A DNA stretch of 64,000 bases from Candidatus Heimdallarchaeota archaeon (lineage in GTDB: Archaea; Asgardarchaeota; Heimdallarchaeia; JABLTI01): the NCBI GenBank assembly GCA_018238155.1, contig JABCTZ010000011.1, positions 72,454-136,453 of the forward strand. Direction: 5' to 3'. The position numbers and the translations under genes were made by a program. Under the pieces are notes generated by a model. That model saw only the letters and a program-made list of their open reading frames with translations. It was not told where the DNA came from and made no database searches. Of this stretch, positions 27,662 to 32,243 are shown in pieces. Every line of letters begins with the position of its first letter. Position 1 is the stretch's first letter.

Positions 27662-28285
27662 CTATTTTGAAAGTTTAATATATCGTTCAAACTCTTCTAC
27701 TCCGCCATCACGAAGCCTTTGACGAATTAAATCTCTCAGAGAATCTAAATTGGTCCCTCGTTTTGCACTAACAAAGAGAAATGATTCTTGGAGTTGCTTG
27801 GATAATCGGTTGAAATTTACCGAGTCCTTAAAATATTCCATTGCTTGATCTGCTTCGTGCTTATAGATTTTGTCAATTTTATTCAAGACAACAATAGGCT
27901 TAATTTTGTTCGATAGTAAGAATTGATATAATTCTTGATCAATAGGAATGATCCCCTTTTTTGAAAGGCGTTTAGAAACATCAATCAAACTTTTAGCATC
28001 AATTACTAGAACACAAGCCGGTATTCGAAAACTATTCTCTTCAAAATAATCAACGATTTCTTGTTTTACTCTTTCTTCAAATTCTTTAGTTCTACTATGA
28101 ACTTTACCCCAACCTGGGACATCAACAACTTTGAATTTCTTAGAGAGATTATATTCATTTATACGTCTGGTAGAACCGGGCTTCTTTCCAATAGTAGGAT
28201 TGACTGCAGTTAATTTTCCAATTAACGAACTCTTACCAGCATTTGGTCTTCCTACGAAAATAAGTAACCAAGCAAAAGCTTCCAT
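27662..28285 (-). CDS. engB: GTP-binding protein EngB (archaeal)
   Basis: GRPNAGKSS, KPGST, DVPGWG, NKIDK, SAK; IPID.E archaeal signature. Confidence 0.9.
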   Translation of the reverse strand: MEAFAWLLIFVGRPNAGKSSLIGKLTAVNPTIGKKPGSTRRINEYNLSKKFKVVDVPGWGKVHSRTKEFEERVKQEIVDYFEENSFRIPACVLVIDAKSLIDVSKRLSKKGIIPIDQELYQFLLSNKIKPIVVLNKIDKIYKHEADQAMEYFKDSVNFNRLSKQLQESFLFVSAKRGTNLDSLRDLIRQRLRDGGVEEFERYIKLSK

Positions 28286-28330: not shown

Positions 28331-31195
28331 TTAATCACCCCAGAAAGGACGTGTACGTGAATATTCTTTTTCCGCATCAATTATTTCAGAATAGAACTCA
28401 TAATCTTCCTTAGAGTAACTTTTCTGAAGAACTTTACTTGCACTTCTTGGACCTATACCTCGAGCAGAGAGGGCAATAATAGCTTTCTTTCCTGAAGCAA
28501 TAACTAAATCAGCGCTTTTGAATCCTCTTTTGAGGATCTTTTCTTCATCTGGGTCCAATTTTTCTCTTCGAAGGTGTTTTCTAATTATTGGATGAAGATC
28601 TTCATTATATGTTGATACCGCAGCAAGATAGCGAGCACCACACTTTGGACATTCAGGTTTATCATCAAGATTACCTACAGTGGAAATGACATTATATTTT
28701 CCACACCACATACAAATTAAGCGTATCTTTTTCTTGTCAAGTCTTTCCTGTACTTTCTTAGCTAGTTGCCGGTCTGGTTTTGAAGGGATAATAAATCCCG
28801 TAAATCTCAATTGATTCAGTGCCGAACGAGCAAGAGGAGAAATGTCTTCTAAAGATTTCTTTTCAATTAGAGCAAATTCAATCTCCCGTTTGTTTATTTT
28901 TTCAAGAACTTTCTTGGTTTGTTCAATATCTAATTTATCATGGAGAAGTTCTTGAAATGTAGAATCGGCAATTAGTGTTCCTTCATAAGCTCTAGCTATT
29001 CGTTTTGGAGATATTTTTCTTCCTTCCCAGTGTCCTCTAATTGCTCCGAAACGCTTTGCAATGTGAATAAACCGCCAATCATACATTGATGTTTGTGGGA
29101 TAGTTCTTCGAAGAAGCTCTTCAACGAAATTTCCTCGCAATTCGCGGAAAGCACCTTCTATATGCTGAGGTTTGAGATAATATGGAAAACTAAGAATAAT
29201 TCTATAGGAATCAGCTCGGATACTAATTGCACAAGCAAATCTAGCCATTAACAAAGAACCAACAAGTTGCCCTAATGTTTGATTCACATTCGTACCAAAA
29301 TCAGTATGGATAATACCAAAATTACCCAACGTCTCAATAACAATTCTTTTGTTGGTGGGCATTGGATTATCTTTCGAGTAATGATTAAATAGGTATTTAA
29401 TAATTTCATCTTTGGAATCTTCGTCAATAGGATAATCGGTAAGCGCTTCTTTTGCATCATTCAAATCGTCAGATCCATTGAATTTCTCCCAAATCTTCCC
29501 ACGTATTTCACCTACCTCTTGAGCTACTGAAAAGGGGACAGGAATTAGTTCGCCACCCCAAGCAGGAATAGCGCCAATAGGATTATGAACTGGTGCTACT
29601 TCAATTCTTTCTTCATGAATTGCAAGGATTTTCCAAGGAACACCTTTAACAATAAAAACAGTTCCAACAGCGCCTGAAATTTGAACAAACTCCTCATCAA
29701 GAGAACCTACAATGCGGTTCGTAGCAACATCATAGATTTGACATCGTTTCACATCTCTAATTGGACTAAGATTCCCAAAGTAATAATGTAGTGTATACTT
29801 TCTTCGAGTAACTTTACCATCGTCCTCTACCCAGAGAGTACCTAATTCCTTCATTAATCGAAGCAGTTCCCATAATTTCTCTTTGGTAATATCTTTGAAA
29901 GGATAAGCACGACTAATAATAGTAAATAGTTCATCAACCGTTCGAGGTGCATTCTCCATCAAAATACCTGCAATTTGATGGGCCAATACTTCCCACGGGG
30001 CGAAGTGTGGTTTTGGTGGCTCAAGTTCTTTGTTGAGAGCTTTGCGACCAATTACTGCTGCTTCTAGAATATCTTCTGCATCAATAGTAATGAGTATACC
30101 ATTACTAGTCTTGTCAATTTTATGACCACTTCTACCTATCCTTTGAAGGAGTGGAGCAATTTCTCGGCTGGACATCATTTGGATTACAGTATCTACAGAA
30201 CCAATATCAATACCTAATTCAAGACTAGACGTGCAAATTATGGCTTTCAAATCACCACTTTTAAAACGGTCTTCAGCTTCTTTTCGAATATCTTTGGAAA
30301 GAGATCCATGATGAACACCAAAGGGAAAATCGGTGCCTATCAAACGCATTCTGTTACCAAGTATTTCAGTAAATTGGCGAGTATTAGTAAAAACAAGAGT
30401 GTGAGCGTTCTCACGAATTATATCAATAACCTTTCTAGCTCGAGCAGCGGCTTCAGGACTCGAAAAAATCTTCTCTGCGAGCTCTTCATCTTCTTTAGAA
30501 ATTTGAGGGTAAATAATTGATAGATTGATTGATTTAATTGTTGGCTCTTCAAGGATAGCACATTCTCTATCTTTTCCTACCAGGAGATTGGCGACTAAAT
30601 GAGAATCACCAACTGTTGCTGAAAGACCTATCCTTTGGAAACTGTTTTTACAAAATTGTTCAAGACGTTCTAAAGAAAGAAATAATTGTGTCCCTCTCTT
30701 CGAATCAACAAGCTCATGAATTTCATCAATTATTACCCATGAAACGTTACGAAGATGCTGACCAAGACGTTTAGCAGTAAGAATAATACCCAACGTTTCA
30801 GGAGTAGTAACTAAAAGGTGAGGTGGGTCAAGTGTTTGTTTTCTGCGTTCATGTTGTGTTGTATCAGAATGACGGATACTAGTTTTAATATCCAACTGTT
30901 CACCAATATCGATAACTCGCTTGAAAATATCTCGATTAAGGGCTCGGAGAGGAGTGATATATAAAATATTGATACCTGGTTTAAGACCGGTAGATTCACG
31001 ATCTCGAATAAGCTGATCAAAAACAGGGAAAACAGCTGCCTCAGTTTTTCCAGAACCTGTGGCACTAATAATAAGTGCATTTGTATTTTTTTGAAGTACC
31101 GGAAAGGCTAACTCCTGAATAGGGGTGAATTTTTCAAAACCAAGAGAAGTAATTACTTCTCGTAAGGCTGGACTAAAATTGCTGAAATCAAGCAT
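28331..31195 (-). CDS. lhr: Lhr-like ATP-dependent helicase with C-terminal Zn finger
   Basis: TGSGKTEAA, TPLRALNRD, DEIH, GLSATVG, HHGSLS, LQRIGRSGH, CMWC..CPKC; probable start MLDFS at 31195. Confidence 0.92.
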   Translation of the reverse strand: MLDFSNFSPALREVITSLGFEKFTPIQELAFPVLQKNTNALIISATGSGKTEAAVFPVFDQLIRDRESTGLKPGINILYITPLRALNRDIFKRVIDIGEQLDIKTSIRHSDTTQHERRKQTLDPPHLLVTTPETLGIILTAKRLGQHLRNVSWVIIDEIHELVDSKRGTQLFLSLERLEQFCKNSFQRIGLSATVGDSHLVANLLVGKDRECAILEEPTIKSINLSIIYPQISKEDEELAEKIFSSPEAAARARKVIDIIRENAHTLVFTNTRQFTEILGNRMRLIGTDFPFGVHHGSLSKDIRKEAEDRFKSGDLKAIICTSSLELGIDIGSVDTVIQMMSSREIAPLLQRIGRSGHKIDKTSNGILITIDAEDILEAAVIGRKALNKELEPPKPHFAPWEVLAHQIAGILMENAPRTVDELFTIISRAYPFKDITKEKLWELLRLMKELGTLWVEDDGKVTRRKYTLHYYFGNLSPIRDVKRCQIYDVATNRIVGSLDEEFVQISGAVGTVFIVKGVPWKILAIHEERIEVAPVHNPIGAIPAWGGELIPVPFSVAQEVGEIRGKIWEKFNGSDDLNDAKEALTDYPIDEDSKDEIIKYLFNHYSKDNPMPTNKRIVIETLGNFGIIHTDFGTNVNQTLGQLVGSLLMARFACAISIRADSYRIILSFPYYLKPQHIEGAFRELRGNFVEELLRRTIPQTSMYDWRFIHIAKRFGAIRGHWEGRKISPKRIARAYEGTLIADSTFQELLHDKLDIEQTKKVLEKINKREIEFALIEKKSLEDISPLARSALNQLRFTGFIIPSKPDRQLAKKVQERLDKKKIRLICMWCGKYNVISTVGNLDDKPECPKCGARYLAAVSTYNEDLHPIIRKHLRREKLDPDEEKILKRGFKSADLVIASGKKAIIALSARGIGPRSASKVLQKSYSKEDYEFYSEIIDAEKEYSRTRPFWGD

Positions 31196-31420
31196 AAAAG
31201 TACCCTTGTTTTCATACGCTTTGCTTCTTCTTTTAAAATAAAAGATAACTTCGAGAAATTTCTTGTAATGGAGATAAGTAATTATTGATATTTGTCTCTT
31301 TTCAATTTTCATTAAAACAAGAATAAGAAAAAAGAACGTGTTTGTATAACTACTCTTTGTTATTTTAAGTGCATTTGTAAGAGAATGCTAGTATAACAGT
31401 AAAAAATGGGAGCAGCGAAT

Positions 31421-31525
31421 TTACTCTTCTTCTTCACCGCTGACAAGATGATAACCCAGTGCTAAGAAACCACCGAGAATTAAAACCAGGTAAACAATGT
31501 AAAGGATAGTATTTGAGTCAATCAT
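31421..31525 (-). CDS. 34-aa single-pass membrane mini-protein, OST4-like
   Basis: Manually translated MIDSNTILYIVYLVLILGGFLALGYHLVSGEEEE; one TM helix ending in YHxV. Confidence 0.55.
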   Translation of the reverse strand: MIDSNTILYIVYLVLILGGFLALGYHLVSGEEEE

Positions 31526-31922
31526 AATCATTCATCTCTTTCGACTTTTTTTTATAAGCGTATAAGTTCCTAATTTCTTCCCTTAAAAACTCTTTCAACC
31601 TTTTTATTATTTATTTAAATTAATTATAAAAACAAATGATTCAAAAATATTAAGTGAGAATATTATGGTTGAAGAAAAATCATTCTATAATGAAGATGAT
31701 TTTGGTGATGATCCAAGTAAATTAACTGAAAATGATATCCCTAAATTACTTTGGATGGTTGAAAAAAGAATGCAAAGATCGAATATGCTTTATATTGATA
31801 ATATGCATTAGGTCGAGAACAATCTTAATAGTCTTAATTTTGATTCAATTAGTTCCAATTATTCTGTCTTGCATTAGTTTATTTATCTAGAAAAGAGAAA
31901 AACAACCATTTTTAATTAATAG

Positions 31923-32243
31923 TTATTTTTCAATAGCTAATCTTACATGAATAATTTTTTTAGAATGTTTATGAGTTTCAACTTTTGTTGCAATAATATT
32001 ATAGAAAAATAATTTGTCAATCACTGAAACGGGTAAAAATAATATGTTATCTTTTTCATGTATACCTTGAACAGTTGTTGTGATAAATATTGCTTTATAA
32101 TTAAAATTAAAATTCTTAATAAGTAAATCAAGAATTTTTTGAACGTATACAGGTGGGATGAGTTTCTGAATCCCATTGGACATATGGATACAAACATCCT
32201 TCTTTACCAAAAGAATTTTTCTTTCTCCTATAATGGTGCTCAC
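31923..32243 (-). CDS. Hypothetical protein
   Basis: 106-aa ORF in an AT-rich gap; no recognised motif. Confidence 0.35.
   Translation of the reverse strand: MSTIIGERKILLVKKDVCIHMSNGIQKLIPPVYVQKILDLLIKNFNFNYKAIFITTTVQGIHEKDNILFLPVSVIDKLFFYNIIATKVETHKHSKKIIHVRLAIEK

Follow-up and report, generated by a model that had tools for sequence, protein, structure and literature searches.

The locus raises the question of whether a very short open reading frame in the genome of a Candidatus Heimdallarchaeota archaeon is a genuine gene and, if so, whether its product is the archaeal counterpart of OST4, the one-helix subunit of eukaryotic oligosaccharyltransferase (OST). The stretch of DNA analysed, henceforth referred to as the window, spans 64,000 nucleotides and belongs to the GTDB lineage JABLTI01, which we take to be a placeholder for Gerdarchaeales; a JABLTI01 contig carries an AglB with 65% identity to that of the host. 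The frame occupies positions 31421-31525 of the window on the minus strand and encodes, as the preliminary description of this DNA had it, 34 residues followed by a stop codon (TAA, 31421-31423). It lies in a gap: the gene downstream encodes an Lhr helicase (28331-31192, minus strand), and farther upstream the opposite strand carries DinB. A second in-frame ATG two codons upstream (31526-31531, minus strand, first base at 31531) would give 36 residues and is probably not the start codon; the start at 31525 is favoured because a Shine-Dalgarno-like GAGATGA (31532-31538, minus strand) lies 6 nt before this ATG and because of where the orthologues start. The same position is AG-rich in the orthologues. 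A putative TATA-box-like element, TTATAAAA (31550-31557, minus strand), is found 25-32 nt upstream, with a similar element in the two closest genomes, and a T6 run 14 nt past the stop codon (31401-31406, minus strand) is a candidate archaeal oligo-T terminator; T runs past the stop also occur in most orthologues. Taken together, these sequence elements suggest that the gene has its own transcript.

Several other elements were seen nearby. An Rfam "skipping-rope" match across the start of the gene was taken as chance (E 0.052; 21 bits vs 36.7). Upstream lies a 106-aa open reading frame (31923-32243, minus strand) with no Pfam match, which is conserved in the two closest genomes (L002 and L003). 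A 48-aa acidic frame (31665-31811, plus strand), divergent from the peptide gene, likewise has no Pfam match and has a 71-aa relative with the same start in L003.

The frame is a gene, not a chance reading frame, and encodes a conserved membrane protein. Orthologues were identified in 8 of the 12 genomes of the host's own family (f1); the other four are 69-84% complete. Among the f1 orthologues, 209, 52 and 514 differences fall at codon positions 1, 2 and 3, respectively, and the ratio dN/dS is about 0.06-0.12 where dS could be estimated (8 genomes of the host family). Coding identity is 67-95%, compared with 25-60% in the flanks. The predicted structure is a single helix (residues 4-33, pLDDT 91) with a hydropathy peak of 2.36, compared with 2.37 for human OST4. 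Residues G18-G19 and G24-Y25-H26-L27 are invariant, and the tail consists of four Glu. The exact peptide sequence is absent from a collection of 15 billion proteins, in which its close relatives are unnamed or labelled "hypothetical protein", and a profile search of 1.84 billion proteins returned 4 members of the family only, all Asgard. Annotation overlooks the family for the most part, and Pfam-based lists of eukaryotic signature proteins fail to pick up the gene.

Direct comparison with eukaryotic OST4 was made with human and yeast reference sequences checked against PDB 2LAT and 1RKL. The preliminary description had placed the peptide in ungapped register with OST4 on the strength of an N-terminal MI-D and of Y25, H26 and V28. 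The last three residues do align in that register, ungapped, and the peptide also has Ile2, one helix and a similar length (34 aa vs 36-37). The N-terminal MI(T/S)D of human and yeast OST4 is not matched, however, since the peptide has Asp at position 3 and OST4 at position 4, and aligning the two would need a gap that the YHxV register forbids. Position 28 is also not conserved, being V in only 5 of 8 orthologues and L or F in the others. Further differences are Leu15 in place of the Gly15 of human and yeast OST4, Gly18-Gly19 where OST4 has large residues, and an acidic tail where that of OST4 is basic.

Over 30 residues the peptide shares 6 identities with human and 7 with yeast OST4, compared with 12 between human and yeast, and the summed BLOSUM scores are 12 and 15, compared with 53. 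By BLOSUM score the peptide ranks 112th of the 2,231 hydrophobic small ORFs of its own genome. Shuffling the helix core gave p 0.30, and p 0.97 when the YHLV end was held fixed (97% of shuffles score as well or better); about 6-7% of decoys outscore the peptide against a human plus yeast OST4 profile. The pattern YHx[VIL] at positions 22-29 occurs in 11 of the same 2,231 ORFs, and a motif of the YHxV type is by itself weak evidence. Searches with the Pfam Ost4 model (PF10215; 25-bit threshold), which had been suggested as a check, gave no match to the peptide at E values up to 10; the peptide is not among the model's 4 matches in its own genome, and no Asgard sequence exceeded the cut-off in 301 genomes. 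Neither the peptide nor the family profiles retrieved OST4 when searched against Pfam, NCBIfam and PDB sequences. By sequence measures, direct likeness to human and yeast OST4 is near chance and not significant, and by the Pfam model the peptide is not a member of PF10215.

The peptide nevertheless belongs to a family that extends across the Asgard archaea. Other Asgard families are coded here as f17, f11, f2, f7, f4, f26, f24 and f21, of which we take f17 to be Hermodarchaeia, f11 Thorarchaeia, and f2 Heimdall- and Kariarchaeaceae. A profile built from the f1 orthologues found a peptide of 34-35 aa in f17, present in one copy in 19 of 19 genomes, and the reciprocal f17 profile ranked the window ORF first among 31,019 small ORFs (E 0.0018). 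A wider profile added peptides from many f2 genomes, from f7, and one each from f4 and f11; the f11 peptide is present in 60 of the 61 genomes of that family. These queries recovered no member from f3, from f14 or from four genomes of the host's own genus that are incomplete, which is not proof of absence. Occurrence is near-universal and mostly single-copy across the lineages, which fits a housekeeping subunit. Tyr25-His26, the conservation of which was a point to be checked, is invariant in 10 of 10 family members, and His26 in 18 sequences from five Asgard families; another residue stands in place of His in the four f11 peptides read. A family peptide, a 66% identical AglB and the same gene order were also seen in a MAG titled Bathyarchaeia (L049, DATKZI010000022.1, and L117), a title that is probably wrong.

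The steadiest neighbours of the gene handle DNA. Lhr flanks it in f1 and in two other Asgard families (f7 and f17), RPA in f2 and f17, and DinB in f1, while an orthologue of the EngB/YihA-type GTPase of the window (27662-28285, minus strand) lies two genes away in one f11 genome. The window's own Lhr and EngB, both of which we place outside the system, are the best matches of the Lhr that adjoins the peptide gene in f17 and f7 and of the EngB near the f11 peptide. Such company could mean that the peptide is a partner of the adjoining repair and replication proteins (Lhr, DinB, RPA), for instance a membrane anchor whose acidic tail imitates single-stranded DNA. We consider this very improbable, since no more than about 5 residues protrude from the membrane, the orientation relative to Lhr varies between tandem and convergent, a T run follows the stop codon, the link is broken in G005 and G008, and other lineages have EngB, IF2 or TRAP-like genes beside it. 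Two genomes assembled as single contigs (G016 and G026) have the family gene about 4 kb from aglB, which is followed by one gene, then RPA, then the peptide gene. These clusters (L282:2714-9100 in G016 and L283:6867-13350 in G026) hold aglB, a 438-aa gene, RPA and the Ost4-like gene within about 6 kb; the 438-aa gene gave weak winged-helix matches.

A connection to eukaryotic OST4 was obtained indirectly, through a 42-aa called gene of f26 (L041:1462-1587:+, on G114:C15) that has a sub-threshold Pfam Ost4 match. Of the Asgard peptides encountered in this analysis, L041 provides the best bridge to the OST4 of eukaryotes. Its only PDB matches are to yeast Ost4 (E 0.14; human vs yeast OST4 gives 0.067), and the human plus yeast OST4 profile ranks it above all decoys, a likeness that is selected for, L041 having been picked from the Pfam Ost4 list. 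From the other side, only 1 of 2,225 small-ORF decoys and none of 1,959 real membrane-helix decoys outranks L041 under a profile of f1 and f17, both reached from the window ORF alone. The scoring used a custom ungapped profile, in which a Tyr-His after the helix adds to every score. The window peptide is thus linked to yeast Ost4 transitively, as the f1 and f17 profile leads to L041 and L041 leads to Ost4. Under a pan-Asgard profile built without f26, the OST4 sequences of human and yeast rank within the top 0.1-0.5% of decoys, a ranking that is partly circular. As a query for protein homologues, L041 matched itself only; relatives of it were found in f24 and f21. The L041 peptide has a basic tail, is far more like yeast Ost4 than the window peptide is, and is divergent from a TRAP-alpha-like gene (E 4.8e-4). 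In f24 (L094:2451-2999:+, L095, L101 and L106) the Ost4-like gene is one gene away from that of a 160-190-aa protein with a signal peptide, a beta-domain and a C-terminal helix, resembling the TRAP-alpha-like gene beside L041; the arrangement amounts to a small translocon-related cluster.

These relatives bear on a further alternative, namely that the window peptide fills the same groove in AglB but arose independently of OST4, or has an ancestry that can no longer be recovered, the true orthologues being the f24, f26 and f21 peptides beside TRAP-like genes. In favour of such an origin, direct similarity is near chance; the two groups also differ in gene neighbourhood and in having acidic or basic tails, and a profile of f24, f21 and f26 does not place the window ORF among its top 25 in the host genome (G000). 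Ungapped profiles nevertheless join the pan-Asgard family to the f24/f26/f21 group, as does a pairwise hhalign comparison (90%, E 1.4e-6). The two types have the same length and the same Tyr-His register and occur together in no genome searched, and we regard independent origin as unlikely. Common descent of the peptide with eukaryotic OST4 is probable, by this indirect route. The proposal of an archaeal OST4 homologue therefore stands as the best reading of the family, the two-step profile link and the docking model described below, while its direct match to OST4 is not significant. None of the outcomes that had been named as refuting the proposal was seen: the frame is conserved, YH does not vary within the host family and docking is predicted.

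The host genome encodes partners for an OST subunit. It contains one STT3/AglB (G000:C15:185357-187516; Pfam STT3, 150 bits), which is of eukaryotic type (E 7.5e-88 to human STT3A), as well as ribophorin I and Ost5, both above the Pfam cut-off. A DC2/OST3-like protein of 167 aa (G000:C41, L268:1339-1842:+) falls below the cut-off (E 4.5e-5), and a DAD/Ost2 match inside a 483-aa frame is weak (E 6.5e-4). The AglB, ribophorin I, Ost5 and DC2-like genes all lie elsewhere in the genome, and the peptide gene is thus not clustered with other OST genes. The DC2/OSTC-like protein corresponds to the membrane part of OST3_OST6 only and its gene is convergent with a 136-aa thioredoxin-like gene (WCPPC motif); the pair resembles a split Ost3/Ost6, which may be chance.

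Docking with the host AglB, also proposed as a check, was predicted at the OST4 site. The peptide was modelled with the membrane part of AglB (residues 1-480) and the complex scored 0.74, whereas the best of 3 controls, whose partners need not be hydrophobic helices, scored 0.00. Of solved pairs 58 of 80 pass the mark applied, as do 2 of 110 mismatched pairs; these counts apply only approximately, because the present model was built from custom alignments. Model runs agreed in at least 89% of contacts, with a partner pLDDT of at least 77. The modelled interface on AglB comprises residues 3-29 (TM1), 129-142, 411-422 and 443-470 (TM13); the helix runs antiparallel to TM1 and is closest at residues 18-22. 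The peptide is therefore likely to sit between TM1 and TM13 of AglB, the Ost4 site, although the pass may reflect memory of solved OST. Because complexes with eukaryotic OST4 or yeast Ost4p have already been solved (6S7O, 6S7T, 6EZN and 6C26) and memory is possible, the score of 0.74 is read as likeness and not as binding. In yeast, Ost4 sits between TMH1 and TMH13, and charged substitutions at positions 18-24 destabilise the subcomplex (PMC7226087). The closest modelled contacts fall within that sensitive zone. The model implies an N-out/C-in orientation, as in OST4, with an acidic tail that departs from the positive-inside rule.

Placement in AglB could instead be a generic, learnt filling of a groove, the peptide being in fact a regulator or subunit of another membrane protein, in the style of MgtS, KdpF or sarcolipin, or a translocon accessory. 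The nearest named ESM Atlas clusters are MgtS-like (0.82) and YldA-like (0.81), which are leads only, as shuffled proteins also reach Atlas scores under 0.9. These bacterial proteins (PF22865 and PF23689) share with the peptide its length, one helix, a patch of small residues and an acidic end. The acidic cytoplasmic tail, as in MgtS, was counted in favour of this possibility, as was the absence of direct OST4 similarity. The link to them is an Atlas feature score of 0.81-0.82, the peptide matching neither family model in Pfam or NCBIfam. The three model controls scored 0.00, no transporter gene is a conserved neighbour, and the family is found only in Asgard genomes that carry an STT3-type AglB. 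We judge a role with another membrane protein improbable.

Our preferred reading, to which we assign a probability of roughly 0.7, is that the peptide serves as the Ost4 of this archaeon, contributing one helix but no catalysis to an oligosaccharyltransferase of several subunits; it likely works like OST4. The peptide would insert N-out/C-in, antiparallel to TM1 of STT3/AglB, and fill a groove lined by TM1, the TM3-TM4 region and TM12-TM13. G18-G19 would permit close packing onto TM1, Y25-H26 would cap the helix at its cytoplasmic end, and the Glu tail would face Arg/Lys-rich cytoplasmic loops of AglB. If yeast Ost4 is a guide, the peptide may brace AglB and help to hold a DC2/Ost3-type partner. 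If this assignment is right, the core genes of Asgard archaea include one for the smallest subunit of the machinery that carries out N-glycosylation in eukaryotes, and assembly of an STT3-Ost4-Ost3/DC2 subcomplex before eukaryotes arose gains support.

The preliminary description had also presented the peptide as an overlooked eukaryotic signature protein. That part does not hold, since Ost4 and Ost5 homologues in most Asgard classes have already been published (Eme et al. 2023, PMC10307638). The family described here likewise covers most Asgard classes; the two sets are likened at the level of classes. OST4 is not mentioned by Carilo et al. 2024 (PMC11417166), and our literature search found no experimental test of an Asgard Ost4. 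The peptide confirms rather than discovers Asgard Ost4, the general claim being already in print; added here are the sequence set of the family, neighbour links between lineages, a docking model with the host enzyme and two candidate residue pairs.

These pairs belong to a broader proposal, that the near-universal Asgard miniprotein family is the ancestor of eukaryotic OST4 and has co-evolved with AglB. Under this proposal, which we hold tentatively and at somewhat less than even odds, the replacement of Gly by Leu at peptide position 15 in this lineage has its counterpart in a Gly at AglB18, and across lineages a small residue at peptide position 18 goes with a large one at AglB14; if true, it would define an archaeal STT3-Ost4-DC2 subcomplex. 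Over the 25 best contact pairs no overall co-variation in size was detected (mean r -0.015; shifted registers -0.10 to +0.06). AglB14 and peptide position 18 gave r -0.72 across 9 related lineages, the 5th most negative of 513 pairs, AglB14 being large where peptide position 18 is small, and vice versa. AglB18 and peptide position 15 gave r -0.59 in the same number of related lineages. All 10 f1 sequences examined, and those of no other lineage, have Gly at AglB18, which contacts Leu15 of the peptide in the model; the equivalent of peptide position 15 is Gly, Ala or Ser in most other lineages. The Gly equivalent to OST4 Gly15 is kept in f24, f26, and most f21 and f11 peptides, and in f11 and in fungi alike STT3 carries Ala at AglB18 and the peptide Gly. 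The two pairs are suggestive candidates for compensating change. Every lineage has a basic loop after TM12 of AglB, its basicity being only somewhat lower where the peptide tail is basic, which hints weakly at charge pairing between tail and loop. The AglB frames themselves differ in size, those of f17 and f11 (L208-L212 and L281) measuring 930-1040 aa compared with 719 aa in the host family, a difference of 200-300 residues.
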